From contig JBAZMW010000001.1 of the NCBI GenBank assembly GCA_041649575.1, forward strand, positions 154,711-218,710: 64,000 nucleotides of DNA, read 5' to 3'. The notes below the pieces were generated by a model, which ran no database searches, was not told the DNA's origin, and saw only the letters and a list, made by a program, of their open reading frames with translations. Shown here piece after piece: positions 3,612 through 61,437 of the stretch. How positions within the stretch are numbered: the stretch's first letter is position 1; each line of letters opens with the position of its first letter. The stretch comes from Patescibacteria group bacterium (GTDB lineage Bacteria; Patescibacteriota; Patescibacteriia; 2-01-FULL-39-33). Position numbers and translations under genes: made by a program.

Positions 3612-5738
3612 TTAATTCGCGGCATATTCAAAATTATTATTTTTTTCGATAAAGCTGGTGGTAAAAACATTGGTGGTTAGCGCCAGTATTTCGGCCTGGC
3701 CATCACTGTCAATGTCGCTCGCCAGCGGCTTGACGCCTTCGCGTTTTTGCGGATTGTAGGCCAGCCAAGAATTTAACAACCTGCCTTGCTGATTGAAAAT
3801 TTTTATCTCCGGGCTACCGCCGAATCCAGGACCGGTGATGATCTCGTCTTGGCCGTCGCCGTTAACATCGCCGCAAGCGACATTGACGCCGCCGGCAAAT
3901 TTTTTATCGTAAGCGAAGAAACCCATTGACAATAGTTTACCACGATTATCAAAGATTTTCACATGAGGCCCGCCAGGACTGGAGGCGCCAACAACAATTT
4001 CGCTCTGGCCGTCGCCGTTAACATCGCCAGCAGCTACATTAACTCCCATTTTAGTCCAAGCTTTATTATAGGCATAAAAGCTGGTTGGTTTTGTTTTCCC
4101 TTGCCAGTTGAAAATTTTGACCAAATTAGCGCCGCCGGTTTCCGGGCCAGTGATAATCTCTTGCCAGCCATCATTATCCAAATCGGCGACGGCCAGAGAT
4201 AGGCCGCCGGCAAACTTAGAGCCATAAGGATAAAATTCGGCAATATTCTCTTGAGCGCTGTTATAAATTGTTATTTTATTTTTGGCGGCTACCAAAAATT
4301 CTTTTTGACCGTCATTATTCAAATCGGTTTTGCTGATTTTATTGCCTCCCAGAAACAGTGAAACATAAGCAAAGAAGCCATTTCTCACGGTGTGTCCATA
4401 AGCATTAAAAGGTCTGGCAAAAGAACCATTAGCAAAAACGCCATCTTCGATTTCCGCTAGCGGTCTCAAAAGAATGACGCCATCGCCGGCTTCCAGCGAT
4501 AGTTTATCAAGACGCGAGCCATTGTTTATTTCTGGGTCTTGGATGCCGTGTATTTTCTCGTATTCCGAGTCAAAGCTGACGGTTTGTTTTTTGTCGGTTG
4601 AATTTACAATAGCCACGCCGTTGGCAAAATCTCTTTGCCACAAGCCGGGCTGGAGATTATTGTTCGAAGTCAGGAGGTTTTTAGGAGAGGATTTGGCCGG
4701 ACCTAAGTTGACGTCATATTCGTCGTACCACCAAAAGTGCTCTCTTAGCTGGGTTCCAAAATTAAAACCATAATAGCCATTATAGAGCAGAGCACTGGCC
4801 AGTCCAAAGCGCATCAACTGGTAATTGGTACGATTGCCGGTATTATCGGTGTCAACGTTGATAATATTTAGACGCGGCAGATAGCCAGAATTATTGGTAT
4901 CGCGGTAGCGTTTCATCGAGCCATCCCAGCCACCTTCCCAATATTCGGGAAAACCTTCAAACATCCGGCCATTAAGATCCAAGTATGGGCCGTCGCCATT
5001 GCCGACAATCAGATATTTATCGCCAAATTTGTTTCTTAGATTTTTAAACAGATTTTTATAACCTTCTTGCCAAAGACGATCGATTTTTTCGGCGGAATCC
5101 AGATAACCGTCAGCGTCAATATCGATGCGCGAATTAACCCAGGAGACGTTTTGCCAGACATTGTCGAGCAGCAAGCCGTCCCAAAGGCCGGTGGCCAGCA
5201 CTTTATTCTGATAGAAGTCGGCTAAATAATCGGCATAAGACTTTCCGAGCCGGTTTTTGACATAAAGATTCATGGAAATATTGCCCGGCCAGAAAGAGAT
5301 ATTTTCTCCAGCCACGGTTTTCAATTGCCAGCGGGGGTCGCTCTCCTTGGCCAAGGTGTGCCACAGGCCAGCGCCTTGCGGCTCAACCACTGATAGCCTT
5401 TCGAGCGGGATTTCGTTGGCGGAAGTATAGGCCAAAATAACAATCCTGGGGTTTAGTTTCCTGATTAGTTTGATTTCTTGCTGACTAGTGCTTTGAGCCT
5501 GCATATCCAGAGCCAACAGATCATAAGCAGCCAGCTTAACAGCCTCTTCTTGAGTGATTGGAGTTTTCCAATATAAATTGACGGTACGAGGAAAGTTATA
5601 ACTAAGCAAATCGACAGCTAAAAGCGACTTAAGCGGCAGAAGAATGGCGCTGAAAAAAGCCGCTAAAATCAAACTGCCGGCCAGAATTTTTTGCCAAAGC
5701 TTTATTTGCAAGTTGGTTTTGGGAAACAAAACAAACAT
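3612..5738 (-). CDS. Membrane-anchored protein with a glycoside-hydrolase-like (TIM-barrel GHL-type) central domain and C-terminal FG-GAP/VCBS repeats
   Basis: N-terminal TM segment. C-terminal repeats DLDNDGWQEIITGPETGG..KIF, GDVNGDGQSEIVVGASSPGGPHVKIF and GDVNGDGQDEIITGPGFGGSPEIKIF are typical FG-GAP. The GH-like assignment for the middle domain is weaker. Confidence 0.55.
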   Translation of the reverse strand: MFVLFPKTNLQIKLWQKILAGSLILAAFFSAILLPLKSLLAVDLLSYNFPRTVNLYWKTPITQEEAVKLAAYDLLALDMQAQSTSQQEIKLIRKLNPRIVILAYTSANEIPLERLSVVEPQGAGLWHTLAKESDPRWQLKTVAGENISFWPGNISMNLYVKNRLGKSYADYLADFYQNKVLATGLWDGLLLDNVWQNVSWVNSRIDIDADGYLDSAEKIDRLWQEGYKNLFKNLRNKFGDKYLIVGNGDGPYLDLNGRMFEGFPEYWEGGWDGSMKRYRDTNNSGYLPRLNIINVDTDNTGNRTNYQLMRFGLASALLYNGYYGFNFGTQLREHFWWYDEYDVNLGPAKSSPKNLLTSNNNLQPGLWQRDFANGVAIVNSTDKKQTVSFDSEYEKIHGIQDPEINNGSRLDKLSLEAGDGVILLRPLAEIEDGVFANGSFARPFNAYGHTVRNGFFAYVSLFLGGNKISKTDLNNDGQKEFLVAAKNKITIYNSAQENIAEFYPYGSKFAGGLSLAVADLDNDGWQEIITGPETGGANLVKIFNWQGKTKPTSFYAYNKAWTKMGVNVAAGDVNGDGQSEIVVGASSPGGPHVKIFDNRGKLLSMGFFAYDKKFAGGVNVACGDVNGDGQDEIITGPGFGGSPEIKIFNQQGRLLNSWLAYNPQKREGVKPLASDIDSDGQAEILALTTNVFTTSFIEKNNNFEYAAN

Positions 5739-9395: not shown

Positions 9396-9770
9396 ATGAT
9401 TTTTTTTAAACTTCACGAATTAATTTGGGTTAATCCGGCCAAGCGCGACAAGGTAATCCTGATTAATTTGTCTTTAGCCCTACTGATTAACCTGGCCTTG
9501 ATAGCGGCGCTGATTTTTAATTTTTGGTGGGCCAAAGAATTCATAATTTTGCGTTTTAATATTTATTTCGGTATCAGCAGCCTGGGTGCTTGGTACAAGG
9601 TTTTTTTGATGCCGCTAATCGGCTTGATAATAATTGTTGTTAATTTTTTATTGAGCTTTTATTTTTATCTTAAAGAAAAATTATTGAGTTATTATCTGGC
9701 CGCCGCCGCTTTGGTTTGTAATTTGATTTTATTGGTAGCGGGGGCTCTTTTAATTTATATTAATTTATAA
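9396..9770 (+). CDS. Small hypothetical integral membrane protein (3-4 TM)
   Basis: ORF made mostly of hydrophobic helices. Confidence 0.4.
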   Translation: MIFFKLHELIWVNPAKRDKVILINLSLALLINLALIAALIFNFWWAKEFIILRFNIYFGISSLGAWYKVFLMPLIGLIIIVVNFLLSFYFYLKEKLLSYYLAAAALVCNLILLVAGALLIYINL

Positions 9771-9788
9771 TTAATACAACCATTTCTT

Positions 9789-10844
9789 ATGCTGATCGAT
9801 TTTTTTGTAATCAAAATTTTCTTTTTGGCCTTTTTGTCGTTTATAGTGGCGATTGCCTGGACGCCGGCTTTGACTCATTTTTTATACAAATACAAGCTGG
9901 GCAAACAAATCCGCACTTCCGATCGGGCGCCGATTTTTTCGCAAATGCATCAAAAAAAATCGGGCACGCCGGTGATGGGCGGCTTGTTGATTTGGGTGAC
10001 GGTTTTGGTTTTTGCTTTTGCTTTTCATTTTTTGGCAGTCTGGTTTGACGGCATTTTCGGCAAGTTTGATTTTTTGAGCCGATCCCAGACTTGGCTGCCA
10101 CTAGGAGCGCTGGTGGTGACGGCCCTGGTTGGGCTAGCAGACGACTTCTTAAATATCAGAAAGATCGGGCCCTATGGCGGAGGCCTGTCGGTCAGACATC
10201 GGCTGGTGGTTTACACCCTAATTGCTTTGGTGGTGGCCTGGTGGTTTTATTTCAAACTGGATTGGGACTTTGTGCGCATTCCTTTTTTGGCCACTTTTAA
10301 TATCGGTCTGTGGTACATACCTCTGGTAATCGTGGTGGTGGTGGCCACTGCTTTTTCGGTCAATGAAATTGACGGTTTGGACGGTTTGGCCGGCGGGACG
10401 CTCTTGGCCGCTTTCTCCGCTTTTGGAGCGATTGCCTTTGCGCAAGGCCGCTATGATTTGGCGGCTTTCTGCGGCGTGATTTTGGGAGCGCTTTTGGCCT
10501 TCTTGTGGTTTAATATTACGCCGGCCAGGTTTTTTATGGGTGATACGGGAGCAATGGCTTTGGGGGTGGTATTGGCGATAATGGCGCTACTGACCAATTC
10601 GGTTTTGCTCTTGCCGGTAATCGGTTTTTTGTTTGTGGTGGAATCGGCCTCGGTGATTATTCAGGTTGCCTCCAAGAAGCTGCGCGGTGGCAAAAAGATA
10701 TTTTTGTCGACCCCGATTCATCACCATTTTGAGGCCAAGGGTTGGCCCGAGGCCAAGGTGGTAATGCGTTTTTGGGTTATTTCCGCCATGACTTCCATTA
10801 TTGGACTGGTGATATTTTTAATGGATAGAGGAGCGTGGCGTTAG
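9789..10844 (+). CDS. mraY: Phospho-N-acetylmuramoyl-pentapeptide transferase MraY
   Basis: Motifs KKSGTPVMGG, GLADDFLNIRK, NITPARFFMGDTGAMALG, HHHFE; multi-TM. Confidence 0.9.
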   Translation: MLIDFFVIKIFFLAFLSFIVAIAWTPALTHFLYKYKLGKQIRTSDRAPIFSQMHQKKSGTPVMGGLLIWVTVLVFAFAFHFLAVWFDGIFGKFDFLSRSQTWLPLGALVVTALVGLADDFLNIRKIGPYGGGLSVRHRLVVYTLIALVVAWWFYFKLDWDFVRIPFLATFNIGLWYIPLVIVVVVATAFSVNEIDGLDGLAGGTLLAAFSAFGAIAFAQGRYDLAAFCGVILGALLAFLWFNITPARFFMGDTGAMALGVVLAIMALLTNSVLLLPVIGFLFVVESASVIIQVASKKLRGGKKIFLSTPIHHHFEAKGWPEAKVVMRFWVISAMTSIIGLVIFLMDRGAWR

Positions 10845-10850
10845 TCTGGT

Positions 10851-11049
10851 CGCTTTTCTTTTCTAGAAAAGAAAAGCGCACGCAAAAGAAAAGTCGCGAG
10901 CTAACATGAAAAATTTTGCGTTTCAGACAAAATTCTAACAAAATTTTTAAATTCCCCGCTCAGGCGCTGACGCGCTGAGCGGGTCAAACAGTAAAAATTT
11001 AGTAACGAATTTTGCCTTCACTTTTTTCAAAATTTTTCATAGGCTCGCA
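10851..11049. mobile_element. MITE-like dispersed repeat, copy 1. A 28-bp perfect palindrome CGCTTTTCTTTTCTAGAAAAGAAAAGCG (10851-10878) is followed by a ~155-bp element with imperfect terminal inverted repeats (GCGAGCTAACATGAAAAATTTT ... AAAATTTTTCATAGGCTCGC).
   Basis: About 75-80% identical to 61235..61413. Copy 1 carries an extra internal hairpin (CCGCTCAGGCGCTGACGCGCTGAGCGG). Confidence 0.55.
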
Positions 11050-11074
11050 TTGGGTAACTATCAAAAACAATTGT

Positions 11075-12205
11075 ATGAAGTATTTAGAATTAAGGAATAG
11101 GATTGAAAATTTTACCAAGTATCCAAAAACTCAAAAGATCTCTCGCTCCCTCATTGTTAACAAGGGATTTCATGGTAATTTTAATATTAGTTTTGGCGAA
11201 GCGCCGTTCCTTGAAAAGTTTGGAAATTATTTGGACAATTCAGAAGCGTATAATTTTTCCACCATTCAGCAAGTTATAAGGGTAAATGATTTTAGAGACG
11301 ACTTGGACTCAACACATCTCTTACTGTTTGATATGGCAGATGTTTCTGGTTTTATTGGTGGAAAAAATGTTTCAGATGATGAAAGAAAAAATATTGCCAG
11401 TTTTACCATCAGAAAAACATTTGAGTTTTTAATTAATGAGTTGAAACTAAAGCCGGAACGTTTCAAGATTTCGTATTTGACCGGAGGAAATGTTGAAGTA
11501 TTGACAGCTGGAAAATATAAATTTGATAAATATGTTGAAGGCGACTCTTTTATAAAAACTGCAAAAGAATTTGGTATTTGTGATGAACAATTTATCCCCG
11601 ACCAGACAAGAACAACTCTGCTAGCATTGAATTTTCAGCCACCAGTTTGTTGGGGTTATCGCAATGAAATTTTATATCAAACTGACAGCCCGAGCGAATT
11701 ATTAGATATTGCTTCTATCGAAAACTTACTTTGGCGGCCGGTGTTTAAAAATGGAATCATAGCCGATCTGGCTAGATGGGAAAATTTTTGGTCTTTTCAG
11801 GTTGTGGGTGTAGAAAGGTTATTAATGCTGATAAATAATTCGGACAAAGTTTATGCGGCTGATCATATTATGCCACTTATCACTAAATTTTCAGAAGTGA
11901 CAAATAGTTTGGATATCCATGTTTGCCGTATTACAATGGAGCTGCTACGAGTTTTCCATAGAATTGTAGCTGATATGGAAGGTTTTTCAATATTGTCCAG
12001 CTCGAGAAAAGAAAAGCTCATACCATATCGTAGAAAATTTTTACAAAATTGTGAAAAATTAGGCTTTGACTATAAAACAAATTTAAAAGAATTATTGACT
12101 CTTAACGGCAAATTGCAGCCATGTTATCCTGAACTCCTTTCGGGCACTGAAGCTAAAACTAATAAAATAATAGAATGGTTGAGAAAAGGAAAGATATATA
12201 CTTAA
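11075..12205 (+). CDS. Hypothetical protein (377 aa) inserted between mraY and murD
   Basis: Host-like AT-rich ORF. I placed the start at ATG 11075 because the track's upstream extension overlaps the repeat element. No recognisable motif. Confidence 0.45.
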   Translation: MKYLELRNRIENFTKYPKTQKISRSLIVNKGFHGNFNISFGEAPFLEKFGNYLDNSEAYNFSTIQQVIRVNDFRDDLDSTHLLLFDMADVSGFIGGKNVSDDERKNIASFTIRKTFEFLINELKLKPERFKISYLTGGNVEVLTAGKYKFDKYVEGDSFIKTAKEFGICDEQFIPDQTRTTLLALNFQPPVCWGYRNEILYQTDSPSELLDIASIENLLWRPVFKNGIIADLARWENFWSFQVVGVERLLMLINNSDKVYAADHIMPLITKFSEVTNSLDIHVCRITMELLRVFHRIVADMEGFSILSSSRKEKLIPYRRKFLQNCEKLGFDYKTNLKELLTLNGKLQPCYPELLSGTEAKTNKIIEWLRKGKIYT

Positions 12206-13611
12206 AAAATAAAAAAGTGACAGTCATGGGGCTGGGTTTATATGAAAATGGTAGCGGAATTTCGGCTACCCGTTTTTTGGTGGAGCAGGGCGCTCGGGTG
12301 ACAGTGACCGATTTAAAGACCAGGGAACAACTGACTGATCAGGTAAAGCGACTGGGGTCGTTGGCTAGGAAAATAAAATTTGTTTTAGGTGAACATCGAG
12401 AGGAGGATTTTAAAAATATTGATTTACTTGTAAAAAATCCAGGCGTGCCCAACATTTCAAAATATTTGCGAATCGCTCGAGAAAATAAGATTCCCATTGA
12501 GACGGATATCTCTTTGTTTTTTAAGCTGGTGCCGCGAGAAAGAATTATTGGCATCACCGGCACGCGCGGTAAAAGCACCACCACCAGTTTGATCTATGAA
12601 ATAGTAAAACTGGCCGACAAAAACGCGGTTTTGGGCGGCAATATCACCAAGTCGCCGCTGGCGCAGATGATGGAAGTAAAAAAGGGAGGCATGGTAGTGC
12701 TGGAGTTGTCTTCTTGGATGCTGGAAAGCTTAGAACCGCACAAAATGAGTCCGCAGCTGGCCATTTTTACCAATATTTACCCAGATCATTTAAATACTTA
12801 CAAAAATATTGCCGAGTACGCGGCAGCCAAAGAAAATATTTTCCAGTGGCAGAACAAAGATGATTTAGTGGTGCTAAACCGCGATAATAGCTGGACCAGA
12901 AAAATGGGCGCTAAAGTTCCAGGCAAAAGGTTTTGGTTTTCCAAAAAATATTTTGCGGCAGAAAACGGAGTTTATTTGAAAGGAAAAGATGTCTATTTTC
13001 GGCTCGCTGGCGAGGAAATAAAAGTCTTAAAAAAAGATGACATTCAAATTCTCGGTGAACATAATTTGGAAAATGTTTTGGCGGCGGTAGCCGCCGCTAT
13101 GGCCTGGGGAATCAGGCCGGAAACTGTCAGGCGAGGTGTAAAAAGCTTCAAAGGCATTAGCGATCGGCTGGAATTTTTGAGAGAAATAAAAGGGGTAAAA
13201 TATTATAATGATACCACCTCGACCACGCCAGAAGCGACGATGGCGGCCCTAAGGGCCTTAAGTTTAAAACCAAAAAGTAAAAGCTTAAAAGAAAAAAATA
13301 TTATTTTGATAGGTGGAGGGTCGGATAAAGGGTTGAATTTTAAAGAATTGGCCAGGGAGATAAGAGATAGAGTAAAAAATTTAGTTTTATTAAGGGGAAG
13401 TGGCAGTGAAAGACTGGCTAAAGAATTTTTAGCTTTAAGTTTTAAGTTTTCAGTTGTTGGCTCTATGGCTGATGCGGTTGGTTTGGCTAAAAGTTTTGCC
13501 AAGAGGGGAGATATTGTTTTGCTTTCTCCCGCCTGCGCTTCTTTTGGCATGTTTAATAATGAGCTTGATCGTGGCGCGCAGTTTAGGATGATAGTTAGGA
13601 AGTTAAAGTGA
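12175..13611 (+). CDS. murD: UDP-N-acetylmuramoylalanine--D-glutamate ligase MurD
   Basis: KKVTVMGLGL N-terminus, P-loop GITGTRGKSTTTSLIYEI, Mur ligase C-terminal region. Confidence 0.85.
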   Translation: MVEKRKDIYLKNKKVTVMGLGLYENGSGISATRFLVEQGARVTVTDLKTREQLTDQVKRLGSLARKIKFVLGEHREEDFKNIDLLVKNPGVPNISKYLRIARENKIPIETDISLFFKLVPRERIIGITGTRGKSTTTSLIYEIVKLADKNAVLGGNITKSPLAQMMEVKKGGMVVLELSSWMLESLEPHKMSPQLAIFTNIYPDHLNTYKNIAEYAAAKENIFQWQNKDDLVVLNRDNSWTRKMGAKVPGKRFWFSKKYFAAENGVYLKGKDVYFRLAGEEIKVLKKDDIQILGEHNLENVLAAVAAAMAWGIRPETVRRGVKSFKGISDRLEFLREIKGVKYYNDTTSTTPEATMAALRALSLKPKSKSLKEKNIILIGGGSDKGLNFKELAREIRDRVKNLVLLRGSGSERLAKEFLALSFKFSVVGSMADAVGLAKSFAKRGDIVLLSPACASFGMFNNELDRGAQFRMIVRKLK

Positions 13612-13629
13612 TGGCTTCGGCGAGGCAGG

Positions 13630-13712
13630 CCCGCCTGCGCCAGTTTTGGCATGTTCAATAATGAGTTCGACCGAGGCGCGCAGTTTAGGATGATAATTGG
13701 TAAATTAAAATA
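13630..13712 (+). repeat. Tandem GC-shifted duplicate of the murD 3' end, encoding ACASFGMFNNEFDRGAQFRMIIGKLK* (murD itself ends ACASFGMFNNELDRGAQFRMIVRKLK*)
   Basis: Direct comparison of 13530-13611 with 13630-13712: the same peptide with mostly synonymous, GC-increasing substitutions. The spurious minus-strand ORF 13203..13736 shows the same duplication. Confidence 0.7.
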
Positions 13713-13736
13713 AAAAAAATACGGCGGCGAGGACAC

Positions 13737-14100
13737 TTGCGTATCACTCGCCGCGCTCTAGGTCACGGACTGCGTTCACGATTGACCCCACGGACATGGG
13801 ATCGTGCTCCTGGGGGGCCGTCCCACAAAGCACGGCGGTTACCGGGGGCCGCGCGTCGCGTCCGCGACTGCACAGAGGCCTTTATGGAAGGCCCGGCGTC
13901 CGCGGTCTACGTCCGCAGGACGTGTCGCCGGTGCCCGTCGATGGCCGCGCCCGTCGCGCTTGTGCTCGGAAACAGATTCGAATTCGATATGGACAATGCG
14001 AGATGGGTGCCTTTTCGGTGCTGAATGTGCATAGTGCGTGTTCCTCCTTGTTTGTTCCATTGAACCTCTTCCAGATTGAAACTATGTAAGGCCATATTAG
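13737..14100. other. GC-rich (about 65%) structured ~360-bp islet of unknown nature between murD and ftsW; candidate ncRNA or foreign remnant. Best ORF candidate is a 41-aa minus-strand ORF (14032..13907) with SD AAGGAGG.
   Basis: Many stable hairpins (GCGGCGAG..CTCGCCGC; GGCCTTtatggAAGGCC; GTCGCGtccGCGAC). Every longer ORF is Arg-rich, i.e. non-coding-like. Confidence 0.3.
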
Positions 14101-14224
14101 CATATTAGTAAATTTTTGTCAATAATTAATTAAATAAAAAAATAAAAAATATTAATTTTTTGTTTAAATTTAGACAAAAATAATTGTTCGAAAATTATTA
14201 AAATAAATAGCCAAAGATCAAATC

Positions 14225-15370
14225 ATGAAAATAAAGGTCAGGGAATTATTAAGAGAAATCATAAAAGGCAAAAAAGATCAGCCGCCGGATTGGTATTTGG
14301 TGGGGCTGATTGTCTTTTTGACGGTTTTTGGCCTGATTATGCTGTCATCGGCCGGAGCGGCCGTTGGCTGGCAGAAATTCGGCGACAGTTACTGGCACGT
14401 TAAACACCAAATTCTTTTCGGCTTATTGCCGGGACTGGTTTTGTTTTTTATTTTTTCGCGGCTGGATTATCACCGACTGAAAAGCCTGGCCTCGCCCATG
14501 CTTTTTATTTCTTTGATTTTATTAGTTTTGGTGTTTGTGCCTGGCATTGGCGCCAGCTGGGGCACCTCAAAAAGCTGGATCAATTTTTTTGGTTTTTCGC
14601 TCCAGCCGTCAGAAATCGTCAAGCTCACTTATTTGATTTATCTGGTTTCTTGGCTGGCGGCCAAGGAAGAAAGACATTTAAAAAACTTGCAGCAGGGTTT
14701 TTTGCCGTTTTTGTTTGTTTTGGGTATAATCACCATTCTGATGGTTTTGCAACCGGACACGGGCACCATGCTGATCATTGTTCTGACTTCGCTGATCGTT
14801 TATTTTGTGGCGGGCGGCAGTTTTTGGCACCTGTCGTGGCTGTCGGCGGTAGGTTTGGGCGGGCTGGCTTTGATTATCAAGATTTCTCCTTACCGCGCGG
14901 CGCGGCTGACGACCTTTTTGCATCCCGAGCTCGACCCGCAAGGCATCGGTTATCATATTAATCAGGCGCTCTTGGCGGTTGGCTCGGGTGGCTGGCTGGG
15001 CCGTGGGTTTGGCCATTCGCGGCAAAAGTTCGCTTACTTGCCGGAGGTGGCCGGCGATTCTGTTTTTGCCATTTTGGCGGAAGAACTGGGATTTTTCATC
15101 TCGGCGGCCGTGGTGGCGCTTTTCGTTTTTCTGGCTTTGAGAGTTTTGAAAATGGCCAAAAATTGCCGTGATCCGTTTGGCTCGCTCTTGGCGGTGGGAA
15201 TTATCGTCTGGTTTGTCATTCAGGCTTTCTTGAACATAGGAGCGATTATCGGCGTTCTGCCGCTGACCGGCGTGCCTTTGCCTTTTATTTCTTATGGCGG
15301 CACTTCGCTGATGATTTGCTTGGCCGCTTCGGGAATTTTGGTTAATATTTCAAGGCACAATAATAATTAA
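14225..15370 (+). CDS. ftsW: SEDS-family peptidoglycan glycosyltransferase FtsW/RodA
   Basis: 10-TM protein with conserved SEDS C-terminus (PLTGVPLPFISYGGTS); dcw context. Confidence 0.85.
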   Translation: MKIKVRELLREIIKGKKDQPPDWYLVGLIVFLTVFGLIMLSSAGAAVGWQKFGDSYWHVKHQILFGLLPGLVLFFIFSRLDYHRLKSLASPMLFISLILLVLVFVPGIGASWGTSKSWINFFGFSLQPSEIVKLTYLIYLVSWLAAKEERHLKNLQQGFLPFLFVLGIITILMVLQPDTGTMLIIVLTSLIVYFVAGGSFWHLSWLSAVGLGGLALIIKISPYRAARLTTFLHPELDPQGIGYHINQALLAVGSGGWLGRGFGHSRQKFAYLPEVAGDSVFAILAEELGFFISAAVVALFVFLALRVLKMAKNCRDPFGSLLAVGIIVWFVIQAFLNIGAIIGVLPLTGVPLPFISYGGTSLMICLAASGILVNISRHNNN

Positions 15371-15383
15371 TCATTAACATAAA

Positions 15384-16439
15384 ATGAAAATTTTATTAGT
15401 CGGCGGCGGAACAATGGGTTCGGTGAGCCCGCTTATCGCCGTCTACCAAAAAATCAAACAGCAACAGCCGGAGACGGAATTCTTGTTTGTCGGCACCAAA
15501 ACCGGGCCGGAGCGGGCGGCCGTAGAGAGCTACAAGATTCCCTTTCAGGCGATTTCTTCCGGCAAGCTTAGGCGCTATTTCAGCTGGCAGAATTTCAGCG
15601 ATCCTTTCAGGATCCTGGCCGGACTGATCAGGAGCTTTTTTCTGATTTTGAGGTTTCGGCCCAATGCCATTATGATCGCCGGCAGTTTTGTGGGCGTGCC
15701 GGTAGCCTACAATGCCTGGCTGCTAAGGGTTCCGGTGCTTATCCACCAGCAGGATATTGTTGCCGGCTTGGCCAACAAACTGATGGGCAACACGGCCCAA
15801 AAAATAACCGTTTCTTTTGACATTTCGTTTAAAGATTTTTTCCCGAAAAAAACAGTTTTGACCGGCAATCCGGTGCGAGCCGAATTTTACGACTGTCAGC
15901 CGGCCAAGAGTCGCAAGTTTTTTGGTCTCAAAGAAGATTTGCCGGTGGTGTTGATTTTTGGCGGTGGTACCGGCTCGCAAAAAATCAACGAAACAGTCAA
16001 AAAATCTTTGCCGGAGCTGTTGCAGTTTTGTCAGGTTATCCATGTCACCGGTCGCGGCAAAACAATTAGCGTCAAGGCCGACGATTATCATCAATTTGAA
16101 TTTTTGACCAACGAGTTTACCGACGCCCAGTGTGCGGCCGATATTATTGTTAATCGGGCGGGCATGTCGACTTTGTCGGAATTGGTGATTTTGGCCAAAC
16201 CAACGATTTTGATTCCTTTGCCCGGGCATCAAGAAGACAACGCCAGTTATTTTCAAAAAAATAACGCCGTTATCACCCTCTCGGAAGCGAACTTAAATAA
16301 TGAAATTTTCACCAGCACGATAAAAGAGCTGGTTTTCAACTCGGGGCGAAAAAATAATCTGTCGAGGAATATGGCCAAGATGATGAAAACCAAAGGAGCC
16401 GAGGAAGTGGCGAGATTGCTCTTGGAAATAGCCAAATAA
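15384..16439 (+). CDS. murG: UDP-GlcNAc--undecaprenyl-PP-MurNAc-pentapeptide GlcNAc transferase MurG
   Basis: N-terminal GGGTMGSVSPLIAV and C-terminal GT28 domain; dcw context. Confidence 0.85.
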   Translation: MKILLVGGGTMGSVSPLIAVYQKIKQQQPETEFLFVGTKTGPERAAVESYKIPFQAISSGKLRRYFSWQNFSDPFRILAGLIRSFFLILRFRPNAIMIAGSFVGVPVAYNAWLLRVPVLIHQQDIVAGLANKLMGNTAQKITVSFDISFKDFFPKKTVLTGNPVRAEFYDCQPAKSRKFFGLKEDLPVVLIFGGGTGSQKINETVKKSLPELLQFCQVIHVTGRGKTISVKADDYHQFEFLTNEFTDAQCAADIIVNRAGMSTLSELVILAKPTILIPLPGHQEDNASYFQKNNAVITLSEANLNNEIFTSTIKELVFNSGRKNNLSRNMAKMMKTKGAEEVARLLLEIAK

Positions 16440-16456
16440 TCAAATTGAAATTTATC

Positions 16457-17851
16457 ATGTCCATTTTAGACACGAAGCTGGAAGCAATAAATAAAATATA
16501 TTTTATTGGTATTGGCGGTAGCGGCGTTTCGGCGGCGGCGCGGATTTTGCAAAAGGAGGGAAAAGAAGTCTGGGGCAGCGATATCAGCGGCGGCGAAATC
16601 GTCGAGGAACTGATCGGGGAAGGCATAAAAATTTTCATCGGCCAGAAAAAAGAAAATATTGTTTCGGATATTGACCTGGTTGTCTACAGCGTGGCCGTGC
16701 CTCAAGACAATCCGGAGAGGCAAACGGCGGAGAAACTGGGCCTTTGCCAGATAACTTACCCGCAACTTTTGGGTTTGCTGATGCGGGATAAGTACGGCAT
16801 CGGCGTTTCCGGCACCAATGGCAAAACCACCACCACCGCCATGTTGGCCAAAATTTTTTTGGCGGCGGGCGAAGATCCGACCGTAGTGGTGGGCAGTAAA
16901 GTTGATTTTTTGGCTGGCAACTCGCGAGTGGGCCAAGGAAAATATTTTATCTTTGAAAGCGATGAATATCGGCGGGCTTTCGATAATTATTTCCCCAAAA
17001 TCGCTTTGGTGACTTATATCACCGCAGACCATCTGGACTATTTTAAAGATTTGGAAGAAATCAAAGCGGCCTTTGGAGATTATTTAAACCGCCTGCCTCG
17101 AGCTGGCTTGGCGGTGATAAACGGCGATGATGATAATTCTCTGGCAGCGGCCAAAAACTGCCAGGCCAAAATAGTCTCTTTTGGCCTGGACAGGCCTGCC
17201 AATTATTTGGCCCAGGAAATAAAAACGGCCGGCGGCAAACAGACTTTTGAGGTGAGAGAGAGGGGCGGTGAGCCGGAGAAAATAACCATTAATTTGCCGG
17301 CCAAATATAATATTTATAATGCCCTGGGCGCCATAGCGGTGGCCAGGATTTGCGGTTTGAGCTGGCCGGTTATCAAGGGCGCTTTGGCCGATTTTACCGG
17401 CACTTGGCGGCGTTGGCAAAAAATTGGTAAAATAGGGAAGACAGAGATTATTGTCGATTATGCCCATACGCCGGACGCGGTGGAAAAAACCATCGCCGCG
17501 GCCAAAGGATATTATGCCGGCAAAAAAGTATTAATTGTGTTTCAGCCGCACCAATACAGCCGCACCAAGGAATTATTTTTGCCTTTCAGTAAAAGTTTTT
17601 GGCAAGCCGACTGGGCGATTATCACTGATATTTTCTATGTCAAAGGAAGGGAGAAGCCGGAGGATTTTGCTGTCAGTTCACAAAAGCTGGCTGAGGCGAT
17701 AATAACCAATGGCAGCCGCGCCGAATATGGCGGCGACTTGGCGCAAACAGAGGAATTGATAAGAAATAAAGCTGGCGATTTTGACGCGGTTCTGATGTTG
17801 GGGGCCGGCAATATTTACGAAGCGGCCAAGAGACTGTCAGAAAACAACTAG
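16457..17851 (+). CDS. murC: UDP-N-acetylmuramate--L-alanine ligase MurC
   Basis: IYFIGIGGSGVSAAARIL and GVSGTNGKTTTTAML P-loop. The track start 16445 is a TTG; I prefer ATG 16457. Confidence 0.85.
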   Translation: MSILDTKLEAINKIYFIGIGGSGVSAAARILQKEGKEVWGSDISGGEIVEELIGEGIKIFIGQKKENIVSDIDLVVYSVAVPQDNPERQTAEKLGLCQITYPQLLGLLMRDKYGIGVSGTNGKTTTTAMLAKIFLAAGEDPTVVVGSKVDFLAGNSRVGQGKYFIFESDEYRRAFDNYFPKIALVTYITADHLDYFKDLEEIKAAFGDYLNRLPRAGLAVINGDDDNSLAAAKNCQAKIVSFGLDRPANYLAQEIKTAGGKQTFEVRERGGEPEKITINLPAKYNIYNALGAIAVARICGLSWPVIKGALADFTGTWRRWQKIGKIGKTEIIVDYAHTPDAVEKTIAAAKGYYAGKKVLIVFQPHQYSRTKELFLPFSKSFWQADWAIITDIFYVKGREKPEDFAVSSQKLAEAIITNGSRAEYGGDLAQTEELIRNKAGDFDAVLMLGAGNIYEAAKRLSENN

Positions 17852-17889
17852 TTTAGTTAACAATAAAATAAAAAGTCGGAAGAGCAATT

Positions 17890-18159
17890 ATGAACAATCT
17901 TATCGACGATGACAGCCATAAAGAGGAGGAGGGGGAGGAGCTAATAGGCAGGGACCAGGAGGTAGAGCAAAAAATCGAGTGGGAAGAAGAGCTGGAGAGA
18001 ACTTATGGCCAAACGAATCGCCGTGAAAACCAGAAAGGAAACAAACTGACGGGCACTGGTTTTGCCAAACAGAAGCAAGTAATGGAAGCCAATAATTTTT
18101 ATCAGAAGCCGAGGCGCCGGCCGCCAGTCAAGCTGGTTGATCAAACCAAAGGAAAATAG
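17890..18159 (+). CDS. Small acidic/charged hypothetical protein (89 aa)
   Basis: ORF between murC and murB with low-complexity charged sequence. Confidence 0.3.
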   Translation: MNNLIDDDSHKEEEGEELIGRDQEVEQKIEWEEELERTYGQTNRRENQKGNKLTGTGFAKQKQVMEANNFYQKPRRRPPVKLVDQTKGK

Positions 18160-18184
18160 TTTTACTTGGTATTAAACCAAGCTC

Positions 18185-19156
18185 ATGGACACTTTAAATA
18201 AATTAAAGGCGGTGGTTTCTGGTTCCATAAAGGAGCGGGAAATTTTGGCGCCTTATACCACTTTCAATATTGGCGGCGCGGCCAGCTATTTTTATTTGGT
18301 TAATAATTCGGACGAGATGATTAAATTGGTGGCAGTGGCCGAAAAGAAAAAATTATCTTATCTTATTCTGGGCGGCGGCAGTAATCTGTTGATCAGCGAC
18401 CAGGGCTTTCAGGGTTTGGTCATAAAAAATAATTGCGCCAAAATCAGAATAAAGAATGATTTAGTGGAAGCGGAAGCCGGGGTCTTGCTTTCCAAGCTGC
18501 TGGGTGAAACGATGGCTGGCGCCTTGCTGGGACTCGAGTGGGCGACGGGGATTCCGGGCACGGTGGGCGGCGCTGTTTGTAATAACGCCGGCGCCTATGG
18601 CGGGCAGATGAGCGACAATATTATTGGCGTTAAAATCATAAGAAACGGCAAAATAAAAGAATTGACAAACAAAAAATGCCAATTCGCTTATCGAGAAAGT
18701 ATTTTTAAAAAGCAAGAAAAGCGTGATGTCATTTTGTCGGTAGTCTTGAAGTTGAAAAAGGGGAGCGCTGTCCAGCTAATGAAGGCCAGAGAAAACATCA
18801 AACTAATAAACAAAAAGCGGGGCAAAAAATTCAGTAGCGCTTCAGCCGGCAGTGTTTTTAAGAATATTTTTTTGGCCGAAAAGGAAATAATCGATTTTAA
18901 AAATAAATTTTCGCAACTGCCGGAAGAGTTTATGGAAAGTAGAAAAATACCAGCTGCCTGGCTGATCGATCAGTGCGGTTTGAAAGGCAGGGCTATTGGC
19001 GGCGCTAAAGTTTCAGAGGAGCATGCCGGTATAATTATAAATACCGGAACAGCTACCGCGGAAAACGTCATTATGTTAATTAGTGTCATCAAACAAAAAG
19101 TGAGAAGCAAGTTTAATTTGCAGTTGATGGAAGAGGTGGAGTACGTGGGTTTTTAG
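18185..19156 (+). CDS. murB: UDP-N-acetylenolpyruvoylglucosamine reductase MurB
   Basis: FAD-binding N-terminus (TTFNIGGAA), GGGSNLL, C-terminal MurB domain. Confidence 0.85.
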   Translation: MDTLNKLKAVVSGSIKEREILAPYTTFNIGGAASYFYLVNNSDEMIKLVAVAEKKKLSYLILGGGSNLLISDQGFQGLVIKNNCAKIRIKNDLVEAEAGVLLSKLLGETMAGALLGLEWATGIPGTVGGAVCNNAGAYGGQMSDNIIGVKIIRNGKIKELTNKKCQFAYRESIFKKQEKRDVILSVVLKLKKGSAVQLMKARENIKLINKKRGKKFSSASAGSVFKNIFLAEKEIIDFKNKFSQLPEEFMESRKIPAAWLIDQCGLKGRAIGGAKVSEEHAGIIINTGTATAENVIMLISVIKQKVRSKFNLQLMEEVEYVGF

Positions 19157-22450: not shown

Positions 22451-22462
22451 TCGGGACGGTCA

Positions 22463-22484
22463 CTTTTTTCCTAGGAGAAAAAAG
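22463..22484. terminator. Palindrome CTTTTTTCCTAGGAGAAAAAAG downstream of secA
   Basis: Perfect hairpin with a CTAG centre, the same architecture as the 10851 palindrome. Confidence 0.4.
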
Positions 22485-22524
22485 CTGACTAAAAAGAAAT
22501 AGCTCGCATTATATAATTAGATAT

Positions 22525-29432: not shown

Positions 29433-29439
29433 GTTATTA

Positions 29440-29583
29440 ACAATCAAATTTTCCACAGACAATGGGCGCCCAAAAGGCTTAATTTACCGCCAAAGCGGTA
29501 GACCTATCGAGGAAATAAGGCTAGAGAGCCATTTTTCGAGTCTGTGGAAAACCACGGATTTTTATTTTATAATCATAATTTTT
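29440..29583 (+). ncRNA. Ribosomal protein L10 leader-like cis-regulatory 5' UTR
   Basis: About 145-nt structured leader directly upstream of rplJ with a long-range stem CCACAGAC...GTCTGTGG. Its position matches the known L10(L12)4 autoregulatory leader. Confidence 0.5.
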
Positions 29584-30570: not shown

Positions 30571-30592
30571 AAGGGCTGATAAAAACACCCCG

Positions 30593-30629
30593 AAAGATCT
30601 CGGGGTGTTTTTGGTTTTTAGAAATTAAT
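30593..30629. terminator. Rho-independent terminator (AACACCCCGAaagatcTCGGGGTGTT + TTTTGGTTTTT), bidirectional
   Basis: Perfect stem and T-tract; overlaps the stop of the convergent minus-strand gene. Confidence 0.75.
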
Positions 30630-35800: not shown

Positions 35801-36229
35801 ATGTTTGTCGGCCAATATTCACACAATTTAGATAATAAAGGCAGGGTGGCGGTGCCAGCCAAGTTTCGTCAGGAATTGAAAAAAGCAGTGGTTACCAAGG
35901 GTTTGGATGACTGCCTTTTTTTATATCCCAAAAATGAGTGGGACAAAATTGCCACCAAGGTGGCTAATTTGCCCATGGATAAGCCGGAAAATCGCGCTTT
36001 CGCCCGCTCGCTTCTGGCCGGCGCTTCGGAAACAGAGTTTGATAAGCAAGGAAGAATAATTCTGCCGGAGTATTTAAGGGAGTTTGCCGGCATCAATAAA
36101 AATGTCATCATAGTCGGTTTGTATAATCGTTTGGAAATCTGGGATGAAAAGAAATGGGATAATTATAGAAAGGAAAGCGACAGGAATTATAACAACATCG
36201 CTAACGCGTTGAATGACTTAAGATCCTGA
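35801..36229 (+). CDS. mraZ: Transcriptional regulator MraZ
   Basis: MFVGQYSHNLDNKGRVAVPAKFR, two SpoVT/AbrB-like halves. Confidence 0.9.
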   Translation: MFVGQYSHNLDNKGRVAVPAKFRQELKKAVVTKGLDDCLFLYPKNEWDKIATKVANLPMDKPENRAFARSLLAGASETEFDKQGRIILPEYLREFAGINKNVIIVGLYNRLEIWDEKKWDNYRKESDRNYNNIANALNDLRS

Positions 36230-36235
36230 AAAATC

Positions 36236-37135
36236 ATGCTGGAAATCCAGAGCCTACATCAGCCAGTATTATTGAGAGAGGTTTTATCTTATCTTAGTCC
36301 ACAGCCCGGCAAAAATTTTGTGGACTGCACTTTTGGCGGCGCCGGACACGCTTTGGAAATTTTGGAGAAGATTAAGCCGCAGGGCAGATTAATCGGTATT
36401 GATTGGGACGATTCGGCGATTCTGACCAGCCGTAATGAGAATTTAATCTTAGTCAATGATAATTATAAAAATTTAAAAAAAATAATCAATGATGCTGGAA
36501 TTGATAAAATTAGCGGAATACTGCTGGACCTGGGGCTGTCTTCAAATCAGCTCGGCCGAGAGGATCGGGGATTTGGTTTCCAGAGCCAGGGACATCTTGA
36601 CTTAAGATACAGCCAGCAGACCAACGGATTGACGGCGAGAGATATTTTAAAAAGTTACAGCGAGGAAGAGTTGTTTCAAATATTTAAAAATTATGGAGAA
36701 GAGCCACTGTCTCGGCCAATCGCCAAGAAAATAATCGCGAAACGCCAAGAAGGTCGGGCCATTGAGACGGCTGAAATGCTTGTCCAGCTAGTCTCACAAG
36801 TCTACTCCCATTATTTTAAATCACGTTCGCGCCGTAATCCGGCCACCAGAGTTTTTCAGGCGCTAAGAATCGCTGTTAATGATGAATTTGGCAATCTGCG
36901 GAGTGTTTTGCCGCAAGCAGTGGAGGCCCTAGTTCCTGGCGGCCGGCTGGCGGTAATTTCCTTTCATTCTGGAGAGGATCGTATTGTCAAACAGTTCTTC
37001 AGGCAGGAGGCCAAAAAAGATCGGCCGACAGTTAAAATTTTGACCAAAAAGCCGATAACAGCTTCGACTCAAGAGAGAGAAAAAAATCCCCGCAGCCGCA
37101 GCGCTAAACTAAGAGTAGTCGAAAAAATTAATTAA
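36236..37135 (+). CDS. rsmH: 16S rRNA (cytosine1402-N4)-methyltransferase RsmH
   Basis: HQPVLLREVL..DCTFGGAGH..DLGLSSNQL motifs. Confidence 0.9.
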   Translation: MLEIQSLHQPVLLREVLSYLSPQPGKNFVDCTFGGAGHALEILEKIKPQGRLIGIDWDDSAILTSRNENLILVNDNYKNLKKIINDAGIDKISGILLDLGLSSNQLGREDRGFGFQSQGHLDLRYSQQTNGLTARDILKSYSEEELFQIFKNYGEEPLSRPIAKKIIAKRQEGRAIETAEMLVQLVSQVYSHYFKSRSRRNPATRVFQALRIAVNDEFGNLRSVLPQAVEALVPGGRLAVISFHSGEDRIVKQFFRQEAKKDRPTVKILTKKPITASTQEREKNPRSRSAKLRVVEKIN

Positions 37136-37163
37136 TAATAAAAGTGGCTAGCAAAACAAGTTT

Positions 37164-37535
37164 ATGTGCAAACTTTGGAAAAAAGAAGAGAGCAATCATC
37201 ATTTTCCCGAACTGAACAAAAAAAAGAAAATCGTTTCCATAGTTAAAAGTTGTTTCGGTTGGAACAAGCTGAGTTTGGTTTTGGTGGCCCTAACCATCAC
37301 GATCGGCCTGACTTATTTGTTTCAGACCAATGCCACGGTAGCCGACGGTTATAAAATTAAAGGATTGGAAGATAAAATCAACAGTTTAAAAGAGGAAAAT
37401 AAAAAATTAAATTTAAAAAGCATTGAGTTGCAGTCAATGGCCAATATTTCCAGTCAAGTAGCCGACCTAAATTTAGTAACGACCAAAGACATCGAAATTA
37501 TAACGCCAGTTGGTTCGGCCGTGGCCTTACGTTAA
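37164..37535 (+). CDS. ftsL: Cell division protein FtsL-like (single TM plus coiled coil)
   Basis: Small bitopic protein between rsmH and ftsI. Confidence 0.55.
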   Translation: MCKLWKKEESNHHFPELNKKKKIVSIVKSCFGWNKLSLVLVALTITIGLTYLFQTNATVADGYKIKGLEDKINSLKEENKKLNLKSIELQSMANISSQVADLNLVTTKDIEIITPVGSAVALR

Positions 37536-37541
37536 AAAGAA

Positions 37542-39437: not shown

Positions 39438-39477
39438 GGAAAACGCGGTTTATCAAATTTAATAACAGGAAAGAAAA

Positions 39478-40764
39478 ATGAAATTTTTTAAAAAGATTGT
39501 CCAAAAAATTTTACGGCTGTTGGCGCGGCTGATTTTGAATAAATACCAGCCGGAGATCATTGGTATCACCGGCAGCTTTGGCAAGACTTCGACCAAGGAA
39601 GCGATTTACACCGTTTTATCAAAAAGATTTAACGTGCGAGAGAACATCAAAAATTACAACAACGAAATCGGTTTGCCTTTGACAATTATTGGCGCCGGTA
39701 GCGGCGGTCGTTCGGTGTGGGGCTGGGTAGGAGTATTTGCCAAGGCGTTAGTGTTGTTGATTTGGAAAGACAAAAGATACCCGGAAATTTTGGTTTTGGA
39801 AATGGCAGTCGATCGGGTGGGTGATATGAAGTATCTGACCGATTTGGCGCCTTGTAAAATAGGAGTGGTCACCAATATCGGCCCGGTGCATCTGGAGTTT
39901 TTCAAAACCCTAGAGAGAATCGCCAAGGAAAAATCAGTGATTGTCTCGCAACTGACCACCAACGGCTGGGCGATCTTAAATGCCGATAATGATTATGTGC
40001 GGCAGATGGCCGAAGAGACCAAAGCCAGAATCATGACTTATGGTATTTTAGAAAAAGATACAAGTATCAGGGCATCGGAAATCATTATTTCACAGAATAA
40101 TCAAGAAGAGATCGCGGGTTTGAGTTTTAAACTCTCATACCGTGGCAGTACGGTGCCGGTTTTCCTGCCTAATATTTTGGGCGAACATTTGATTTACGCG
40201 GCGCTGGCGGCAGCGGCCATCGGCCTGGTTTATGAAATGAATTTGCTGGAAATTTCCGAGGCTTTGCGACTGTTTAAAGCGCCAAGCGGCCGCATGAACT
40301 TGCTGGTAGGAATCAAGCAGACAAAGATCATTGACGATAGCTATAATGCCGGTCCGGATTCGATGCTGGCGGCTTTGAAGGTTTTGGGAAAAATTAATGG
40401 CGGTGGCAGAAAAATAGCGGTTTTGGGCGATATGTTGGAACTGGGCGATTATACCGACGAAGGACACCGTCAGGTAGGGGCGGAAGTGGTTAAGAATAAG
40501 ATAGATATTTTAATTACAGTGGGCGAGAGAGCGAGAACAATCGCGGCCGAATCGCAAAGACAAGGCCTGGACAGTGATCTGATTTTTAATTTTTCCGACA
40601 CGGAAAGAGCCGGATCTTTTTTGCAGGAAAGAATGGAAGAAGGCGACCTGGTTTTGGTCAAAGGGTCGCAAGGAATGCGAATGGAGAAGATTGTCAAAGA
40701 AATAATGGCCGAGCCGCTTAGAGCCAAAGAACTTTTAGTACGCCAGGAAAAGCCCTGGAATTAG
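39478..40764 (+). CDS. murF: UDP-MurNAc-tripeptide--D-alanyl-D-alanine ligase MurF
   Basis: GITGSFGKTSTKEAIY P-loop, Mur ligase middle and C-terminal domains; follows ftsI directly with no murE. Confidence 0.85.
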   Translation: MKFFKKIVQKILRLLARLILNKYQPEIIGITGSFGKTSTKEAIYTVLSKRFNVRENIKNYNNEIGLPLTIIGAGSGGRSVWGWVGVFAKALVLLIWKDKRYPEILVLEMAVDRVGDMKYLTDLAPCKIGVVTNIGPVHLEFFKTLERIAKEKSVIVSQLTTNGWAILNADNDYVRQMAEETKARIMTYGILEKDTSIRASEIIISQNNQEEIAGLSFKLSYRGSTVPVFLPNILGEHLIYAALAAAAIGLVYEMNLLEISEALRLFKAPSGRMNLLVGIKQTKIIDDSYNAGPDSMLAALKVLGKINGGGRKIAVLGDMLELGDYTDEGHRQVGAEVVKNKIDILITVGERARTIAAESQRQGLDSDLIFNFSDTERAGSFLQERMEEGDLVLVKGSQGMRMEKIVKEIMAEPLRAKELLVRQEKPWN

Positions 40765-61020: not shown

Positions 61021-61234
61021 TTCTTATGAAAAATCATGCTAAAGTCGGCGGGCGCAAAGGTCTGCCGGGATACCGGACACCTTCGAGCTTTAGGTTTCGT
61101 AAAGACTTAGCAGTAAAAAGCTTGAAAGCTTTTAAAAGGGTTAAATAGTTGTCAGGAGGCACAGAGTTTGTTATACTAGTCCCTAGCCGACCAAAGCACG
61201 GTGATTTTTGCGTATATTTGCGTATATAAGTTAT

Positions 61235-61413: not shown

Positions 61414-61437
61414 AAAATAAGAAAACAATTTTTAATA

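Follow-up and report, generated by a model that had tools for sequence, protein, structure and literature searches.

The window analysed here is a stretch of 64,000 nucleotides from a Patescibacteria group bacterium (contig JBAZMW010000001.1, positions 154,711 to 218,710), and our subject is a repeated, structured, non-coding element within it. Two intergenic segments, at 10848-11049 (copy 1) and 61230-61414 (copy 2), are homologous, share one orientation and lie 50 kb apart among dcw, secA and uvrB genes. A blastn alignment of 10851-11049 with 61236-61414 gives 75.9% identity over 199 columns (E 5.8e-31; 86% when ungapped), in agreement with a preliminary description of this DNA, which had paired two similar intergenic segments. 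Their neighbours are also as described there: mraY (PF00953) precedes copy 1 and a CE4 deacetylase gene (PF01522) precedes copy 2, and on the plus strand a 376-aa open reading frame (ORF) starts 25 nt after copy 1 and uvrB 24 nt after copy 2. Neither blastn nor nhmmer found a further full copy in the window, and ARAGORN reported three tRNA genes and nothing else. The 80 closest UvrB loci in a species-representative genome collection are almost all from Patescibacteria, the nearest (71-79% identity) being labelled Candidatus Buchananbacteria.

Together with their relatives in other genomes, the two copies define a non-coding element of ~175-205 bp (~190 bp). In the plus orientation it consists of a first hairpin (hairpin-1), a purine run (R2), an invariant (G)TC junction and a longer second hairpin (hairpin-2). 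Hairpin-1 has a lower stem of 3-5 bp, usually with a one-base bulge (mostly C) on its 3′ side, and an upper part made of a pyrimidine run (CTTTTTCTTTT-like), the loop CTAG(G) and a complementary purine run, R1. R2 starts 1-2 nt after hairpin-1 and leads into the (G)TC. Hairpin-2 is imperfect, 122-153 nt long and variable at its tip; it is closed by GCKMGC...GCKMGC and usually followed by A.

In copy 1, hairpin-1 occupies 10848-10883 on the plus strand, with the lower stem GGTCGC / GCG(C)AC, a T-run TTTTCTTTT at 10854-10862, the loop CTAG and an A-run AAAAGAAAAG at 10867-10876; the sequence, a perfect palindrome and covariation of the lower stem across the family define it. The single-stranded purine tract R2 (AAAAGAAAAG) with the invariant TC follows at 10884-10895 on the same strand, recognised by a pattern match (none expected by chance) and by the mirror relation found in the family. 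Family alignment places the 153-nt hairpin-2 at 10896-11049 on the minus strand (GCGAGC...GCTCGC plus A), with a GC tip hairpin at 10954-10983. Copy 2 has its hairpin-1 at 61230-61265 on the plus strand (lower stem GTTA / (C)TAAC, T-run 61234-61244, loop CTAGG, A-run 61250-61260), and pattern match and mirror relation place its R2 plus TC at 61266-61278 on that strand (AAAAAGAAAAG, the mirror image of the A-run AAAAGAAAAAG). Its 135-nt hairpin-2 lies at 61279-61414 on the minus strand, and the tip GCTTCGC (61340-61346) is a GCGAAGC mini-hairpin on that strand.

This anatomy changes the reading of several earlier observations. The perfect CTAG-centred palindrome reported for both copies exists in copy 1 (28 nt, 10851-10878, matching its other strand at 28/28 positions) but is imperfect in copy 2 (88-96%). 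The inverted GCGAGCTA..ATGAAAA and TTTTCATAGGCTCGC ends are found in the sequence, but they are not terminal inverted repeats: conserved sequence starts at the lower stem of hairpin-1, and the inverted repeat closes a hairpin that begins ~48 nt further in. An extra 27-bp GC hairpin is indeed present in copy 1 at 10954-10983 and absent from copy 2; since other family members carry different GC hairpins there, it is a variable tip and not an insertion. A conserved micro-ORF had also been proposed. Translated from the ATG that both copies share, the minus strand gives MKNFEKSEGKIRY (13 aa) for copy 1 and, in another frame, MKIWDKRKSKFVTKFHLFDERSEEL (25 aa) for copy 2; relatives reach, by eye, a stop after 5 aa. 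As neither frame nor length is kept, a micro-ORF or toxin peptide was rejected.

A degenerate 'solo' copy lies after secA, at 22459-22508 on the plus strand. It has a hairpin-1 (GTCAC TTTTTTCC TAGG AGAAAAAAG CTGAC), whose lower stem is of the same type as that of L095 and L177 (L-numbers are labels of fetched related loci or contigs), and an R2 (AAAAAGAAA); the last 8-9 nt of hairpin-2 (TAGCTCGCA) are kept and its body is missing. The solo copy falls below the nhmmer E 0.01 cut-off and is the least certain of the parts given here. It starts 9 nt after the secA stop codon, and a TATATAAT box and the ATG of the next gene (22525) lie directly 3′ of it.

Folding of the minus strand and the mirror repeat

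Both copies fold far beyond chance (z -4.4 to -8.6). The minimum free energy of hairpin-2 in copy 1 is -62 kcal/mol on the minus strand versus -52 on the plus strand (z -8.6), and the values for copy 2 are -43.6 versus -36.3. Both hairpins are backed by compensatory changes across the family. The lower stem of hairpin-1 occurs in at least eight different sequences, all complementary (TTA/TAA, GTCA/TGAC, CGCA/TGCG, CACA/TGTG, CTTA/TAAG, CCA/TGG and others). For hairpin-2, the 14 members of sub-family B yield a consensus of 31 pairs with 92.6% of cells paired and compensatory changes in 16 pairs; none of 500 shuffles reaches any of five measures, and all slid registers drop to 30-46% pairing.

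Selection for folding acts on the minus strand of the window copies. The consensus helices of sub-family B contain 15 G.U pairs on the minus strand versus one A.C, the single position that is G.U on the plus strand. In 8 of the 14 members the closing 6-mers are GCTCGC at both ends, giving GCGAGC/GCGAGC with tandem G.A pairs on the minus strand; the same closing stems would read UC/UC on the plus strand. The minus-strand fold is the more stable one in 20 of 23 elements, by ~8 kcal/mol on average, and mismatched positions are purine-purine (G/A) 151 times on the minus strand versus 51 times on the plus strand. The tip GCTNCGC occurs 21 times, in 15 of 35 elements, and GCGNAGC not once on the plus strand. 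The oligonucleotide d(GCGNAGC) forms an exceptionally stable DNA mini-hairpin with a much less stable RNA counterpart, and the motif occurs naturally at priming sites on single-stranded DNA (ssDNA) (PMC13037366). Mainly because these mini-hairpins are of the DNA type, we favour DNA over RNA as the form that folds.

The module formed by hairpin-1 and R2 has a second regularity. In asymmetric purine runs, R2 mirrors R1 instead of repeating it directly. The mirror classes are A4GA5|A5GA4 (at least 8 loci, including copy 2), A5GA4|A4GA5 (at least 7 loci), A4GA6|A6GA4 (L107) and AAAAGAAG|AAGAAAA (the second copy in L095); L174, with a direct repeat, is the exception. Read 5′ to 3′, the minus strand presents a pyrimidine run, 1-2 nt, the lower stem, a second pyrimidine run, the loop and the purine run, and its first pyrimidine run is parallel to the purine run with C opposite G. 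Such a mirror register could permit a T.A-T/C+.G-C (or U.A-U) triple helix, a potential that we read from the sequence. A linker of 1-2 nt across a stem of 5-6 levels is the geometry of a pseudoknot loop 1.

G-rich analogues, in which a CCCCTCCC hairpin is followed by a second GGGAGGGG run, occur in Patescibacteria in L004 (10763-10802 and 19780-19817), L042 (11364-11414) and L008 (17569-17599). They could be pairs resembling Shine-Dalgarno and anti-Shine-Dalgarno sequences or another device built on mirror or direct purine repeats.

A dispersed repeat family and its genomic setting

The pattern AAAAGAAAA-N6-10-AAAAGAAAA-N0-2-GTCGC has a chance expectation of zero in the window. It matches at least 117 loci in metagenome contigs, and about 40 of those listed have the complete module including the upstream pyrimidine run. 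Profile searches over everything fetched gave 35 elements with a hairpin-2, from at least eight metagenome projects; these stand at different loci, so the window copies are not an isolated pair kept in synteny. Their hairpin-2s fall into sub-families (the window type, a GCTCGCTGTAAAAAATCATGGCCAAATTTT type, an L010/L106 type and an L092/L178/L189 type), with which several hairpin-1 variants combine. Two Buchananbacteria genomes carry copies (L010 and L007). The L010 contig, from a metagenome-assembled genome, has three copies in 17 kb, at 4297-4703 and 17395-17452; a tail-to-tail pair sits between glmS and a beta-CASP RNase gene, and the third copy is cut by the contig end.

The family appears to be new and matches no catalogued RNA or repeat family. 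Rfam 15, at gathering and permissive thresholds, gave no match for the window copies, 20 related loci or one Bacteroidota relative, the best E-values being 0.2-1, all to unrelated eukaryotic families. Literature searches on repeats or miniature inverted-repeat transposable elements (MITEs) of the candidate phyla radiation (CPR) found nothing relevant. No true module was found in IMG/VR viral contigs and no blastn match in phage and plasmid records, and on these negatives a phage or plasmid origin was rejected.

The module of hairpin, mirrored purines and GTC is also present in large Bacteroidota-type contigs (L086, L088, L090, L111, L126, L127, L135, L136, L138 at 5004-5654, L152, L163 and L185), within a conserved structured region of ~300 nt. 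There, hairpin-1 has the loop CTCTC and is followed by the mirror R2, GTC, a ~75-nt domain closed by GCRGC/GCYGC, and then A. At least one further lineage has the module (L122, 7780-7960), and neither that locus nor the Bacteroidota region matches Rfam. Such a distribution makes the module older than the CPR repeat family or more widely exchanged, and its function may be a general one. The Bacteroidota-type contigs reach 1.1 Mb, and the neighbouring genes are Bacteroidota-like at one locus. Their ~300-nt region, which has variable stem insertions and covarying GCRGC/GCYGC closing stems and lies mostly between convergent genes, may be an undescribed non-coding RNA or repeat.

Several observations indicate that the elements move or are replaced. 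In L095, L113, L141 and L177, from one sample series, copies are 94-99% identical to each other and have unrelated flanks. In the L118 contig, one locus contributes the left flank and another the right flank, as is typical when assembly runs through a repeat; L010 (17400-17452), L082 and L118 end in or at an element. In the window, the uvrB promoter TTGTCA-17-TATACT (61149-61177) and a small leader hairpin that relatives conserve span 61149-61226 on the plus strand. In the 16 relatives inspected, promoter, small hairpin and a motif GATTTTTGCGTAT lead directly into the ATG, whereas in the window copy 2 separates promoter and leader from the uvrB ATG (61438). None of the 79 other uvrB loci has an element directly upstream of uvrB. 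Copy 2 is thus an insertion in the uvrB leader, and the idea that it is a conserved leader of that gene was rejected, the relatives having a different, short leader without the element. The patescibacterial uvrB genes (L002-L017) share a leader in which a small GC hairpin lies behind the promoter and the motif GATTTT(T)GCGTAT immediately precedes the ATG. We note that TTTGCGTATA is tandemly duplicated at 61207-61226, immediately to the left of copy 2.

Copy 1 has a syntenic counterpart in L177 (mraY-element-murD), yet the paralogues of that genome are at least as similar to it as the syntenic copy. Its ungapped identity to all copies of that genome is 91-93%, whereas mraY is only 80% identical at the nucleotide level. 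The family consensus is therefore held much tighter than neutral sequence, through selection, conversion or recurrent insertion. The same gene precedes the element in L147 and L161, whose hairpin-2s are full-length and 32 nt long, respectively. Elements are gained and lost between related genomes. The orthologous L147 and L161 sites also differ in the lower stem, which leaves unsupported the idea that the 5′ strand of this stem derives from the target, as in guide-target pairing.

The elements occupy short spacers between genes, can face either way and are found alone or in tail-to-tail pairs (four pairs, 23-50 nt apart). Hairpin-1 often begins 0-12 nt after a stop codon, a relation that convergent junctions meet in either orientation. 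Crude ORF calls place 11 elements at co-directional junctions with the operon reading the plus sense versus 6 with the opposite sense; 7 of the 25 classifiable junctions are convergent and 1 is divergent, and 9 further junctions could not be assigned. An early count of 19 of 24 in favour of strict co-orientation with the upstream gene was inflated by the uninformative convergent junctions, and the 11 versus 6 at co-directional ones lead us to reject it. The neighbours are unrelated genes (uvrB, murD, clpP, RNase H, NUDIX and others). With such neighbours, both orientations and many copies between convergent genes, the earlier suggestion of a shared regulatory module for the downstream gene does not hold.

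The two transcriptional senses of the element differ. In the minus sense, GAC-UUUUCUUUU(U), with U4CU4-5, comes after hairpin-2 and gives it a terminator-like look; in the plus sense, hairpin-2 comes after an A-tract and nothing is conserved 3′ of it. Transcription has to cross both window copies in the plus sense, where the hairpin is the weaker one and follows the A-tract, so that operon transcripts would probably pass. Searches for minus-strand promoters inside or beside the element returned AT-rich matches at chance level; the one good match, inside copy 2, is lost in other members, where the tip hairpin disrupts it. The genome has ordinary promoters and terminators. A textbook bidirectional terminator stands at 30580-30613, between rplL and a convergent 801-aa gene, and an Rfam L10 leader (54 bits) at 29435-29574, upstream of rplJ. 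The division and cell-wall cluster around copy 1 is split: mraY-(ORF)-murD-ftsW-murG-murC-murB occupies 9396-19156, and a second part, mraZ-mraW-(ORF)-ftsI-murE, occupies 35801-40764 in reversed order on the same strand.

Proposed spread through a folded single strand

We consider it about an even question whether the segments are members of a ~175-205-bp non-coding, non-autonomous repeat family of Parcubacteria-type CPR bacteria that resembles REP/REPIN sequences, folds strand-specifically and spreads via ssDNA; this is the reading we prefer. The mode of spread and the effect on the host are what we infer from the features above. The family would spread, or be homogenised, via a single-stranded DNA form of the minus strand rather than by DDE-type cut-and-paste, and that ssDNA would be recognised by a hairpin-binding enzyme whose gene lies elsewhere in the genome, as in REP/REPIN-RAYT systems or IS200/IS605-derived elements. 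As a likely side effect on the host, the minus sense would act as a one-way terminator or an exonuclease block. A folded ssDNA intermediate is the most economical proposal because it explains the missing terminal repeats and duplications, the strand asymmetry and the DNA-type mini-hairpins.

Among known systems, REP/BIME/REPIN sequences with their RAYT (TnpA_REP) proteins are similar in being intergenic imperfect palindromes, often behind genes or between convergent genes; they also occur singly or in inverted pairs, leave no target duplications, are recognised in their folded single-stranded form and resemble one another within a genome. However, REP units measure 20-40 nt, carry a 5′ GTAG and number in the hundreds, whereas the element here is a ~190-bp composite present about once per 30 kb of the source contig, its invariant junction is the GTC before hairpin-2, and no RAYT (Y1_Tnp) was found among the window proteins. 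IS200/IS605-derived PATEs share the absence of terminal inverted repeats and duplications, hairpins near both ends and strand-specific single-strand chemistry, a likeness that is compatible but not specific. In contrast to PATEs, the element has no conserved 4-5-nt target at its left end, its end hairpins are unrelated, no TnpA or TnpB lies nearby, and its orientation does not track the lagging-strand template. Correia/NEMIS, ERIC, RUP and BOX repeats are likewise 100-200 bp long, with whole-element hairpin potential, co-transcription with neighbours and internal size variants; Correia, RUP and similar repeats, however, end in true terminal inverted repeats and are accompanied by a TA or other duplication, and the element here has neither, and has an asymmetric module at one end. 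An integron attC site would likewise be an imperfect hairpin that varies in length and at its tip, placed after ORFs and folding on the strand opposite the neighbouring gene in many copies. This identity is ruled out: the ends are GCKMGC without RYYYAAC/GTTRRRY core sites, the neighbours are housekeeping genes, and there is no cassette array, intI or integrase match. The hammerhead, box C/D or K-turn, retron msr/msd, diversity-generating retroelement and group II intron were considered from the GUC junction, a CUGAUGA-like string and the long hairpin; they were rejected by inspection because of the two-way junction topology and because a1/a2 repeats and an adjacent reverse transcriptase are lacking.

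A number of points weigh against spread via ssDNA. No transposase, integrase, HUH protein or Y1_Tnp is among the ~50 window proteins searched with Pfam, and precomputed Pfam calls for the 17 kb beyond the window likewise show no transposase, integrase or HUH protein, so no mobilising enzyme has been found. The left flanks are only T/A-rich, with no conserved target motif. GC skew marks the plus strand as leading throughout the window, so both copies have their folding strand in the leading-strand template, with no IS608-like replication rule, and L010 has both orientations within 500 bp. Two full copies and one remnant in 81 kb of the source contig are far below the density of classical REP families. 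A terminator scan made no call on either strand of either copy, for which its loop limit of 8 nt is partly responsible. We infer DNA rather than RNA folding solely from motif preferences, the occurrence of the module in what appears to be a longer structured RNA in Bacteroidota argues for a role at the RNA level, and the high conservation across genomes could reflect a host function. Because no enzyme, target motif or replication-strand rule was found, our confidence in the mechanism is moderate.

The 376-aa ORF after copy 1 was rejected as the cognate enzyme, since it has no Pfam match and by eye looks like the catalytic core of an alanyl-tRNA synthetase (AlaRS) and not like a nuclease or transposase. 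This ORF (11075-12205) lies between copy 1 and murD, overlaps the murD start by 31 nt, is absent from syntenic L177 and, by eye, has AlaRS-catalytic-core-like motifs (QQVIRVNDF..THLLLFDM). In L180 (8057-10449), two convergent elements bracket a single gene for a 677-aa ATPase that resembles VirD4/TraG by eye; a related coupling-protein gene in the window (47470-50037; PF10412, PF02534) has no elements.

Possible roles at the RNA level and the classical MITE

A cis-element kept by the host in plus-sense operon mRNA would be an intercistronic or 3′-UTR module acting as a REP-like stabiliser: a cut in the unpaired A-rich stretch would cap the upstream message at its 3′ end with hairpin-1 and the downstream message at its 5′ end with hairpin-2. 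Hairpin-1 often stands just behind a stop codon, the two window copies are inevitably part of plus-sense transcripts, an element is kept at the mraY-murD junction in two genomes, and the Bacteroidota relatives look plus-sense by eye, with Bacteroidetes-type -7 boxes. Against such a role, the wobble pairs, G.A pairs and tip loops all lie on the other strand; read-through orientation prevails by only 11 to 6 at co-directional junctions, and the 79 relatives lack an element at the orthologous uvrB site. We think this explanation unlikely.

The mirror repeat suggests another function. The constant module (T-run/A-run hairpin, mirrored purine tract, GTC and a GC-closed domain) might be a bacterial triple-helix device, in which two mirrored U/T-runs and an A-run of the pyrimidine-rich strand would build a U.A-U/C+.G-C helix of 9-10 triples that caps a structured nucleic acid, either as an RNA 3′-end protector analogous to the ENE/MALAT1 elements of eukaryotes and viruses or as the recognition handle of an ssDNA mobilisation system; judged from the sequence, this idea is rather unlikely to be right. 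The two pyrimidine runs and one purine run are those of ENE/MALAT1 elements and H-DNA, and polarity and C/G register fit U.A-U and C+.G-C triples, but the module is a closed hairpin with a 5′ tail and not an internal loop that clamps a 3′ A-tail. We know of no ENE/MALAT1-type elements in bacteria. The sequence UUUUUCUUUU is also that of U-rich motif 1 of MALAT1.

If RNA is the folded form, the family could consist of minus-strand small RNA genes, with a long GA-rich hairpin and a U-rich strand in the major groove of hairpin-1, whose U.A-U/C+.G-C triplex at the 3′ terminus would protect the end in the manner of ENE/MALAT1. Every folding signal does lie on the minus strand, the mirror register sets C opposite G in 10 consecutive triples, and the short linker fits pseudoknot loop 1 by the general geometry given above. 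A conserved promoter is missing, however: similarity stops at GCTCGC(A), with no more than AT-richness in the flanks upstream. Copy 2 stands only 24 nt from the uvrB ATG with the uvrB promoter on its other side, so its plus strand must be transcribed, and GNA triloops rather than GNRA tetraloops favour DNA. Small RNA genes of this kind seem quite improbable to us.

The contrast between a strong hairpin with a U-tract in the minus sense and a weak hairpin with an A-tract in the plus sense could also mean a dedicated one-way terminator or insulator kept by the host. GCUCGC-GAC-UUUUCUUUU(U) comes right after a hairpin of -44 to -65 kcal/mol, the convergent junctions (7 of the 25 classifiable copies) and the four tail-to-tail pairs would suit it, and in L010 a reverse-oriented copy is followed, by eye, by a perfect TTGATA-17-TATAAT promoter. 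On the other hand, a 3-nt spacer precedes the U-tract, the scan made no call, canonical terminators such as that at 30580-30613 already exist in the genome, L174 and L187 have an ordinary terminator adjoining the element, and hairpin-1 and the mirror repeat are left unexplained. Such a dedicated terminator is very improbable. A minus-strand small RNA with a triple-helix end, a plus-strand module for mRNA processing or stabilisation and a one-way terminator would not exclude one another.

The preliminary description had leaned towards a non-autonomous transposable element with terminal inverted repeats, and part of this stands, as the element is short, non-coding, multi-copy, insertion-polymorphic and provided with a long inverted repeat. 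A classical MITE, that is, an internally deleted DDE-type insertion sequence moved by cut-and-paste, is nonetheless hardly credible: the inverted repeat leaves ~48 nt of conserved hairpin-1 and purine tract outside it at just one of its ends, both closing 6-mers can read GCTCGC and hence form no inverted repeat on the plus strand, the flanks of copies 1 and 2 show no target-site duplication and those of the four near-identical copies (L095, L113, L141 and L177) no common direct repeat, and Pfam finds no cognate transposase in 81 kb of the source contig.

Small size and dense packing mark the genomes of CPR/Patescibacteria, for which only a few repeat families or non-coding elements are on record; the Rfam and literature searches found no match to this one. 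In practice, the element breaks metagenome assemblies, makes chimeric contigs and marks strain-level variation. The mirror-repeat module that it has in common with Bacteroidota is a testable candidate for nucleic-acid triple helices in bacteria. The family is better conserved than neighbouring synonymous sites, constrained on one strand and tolerated inside essential operons (the dcw cluster and the uvrB leader), and it is therefore either a successful genomic parasite with an ssDNA mobilisation route or a structural module recruited by the host.

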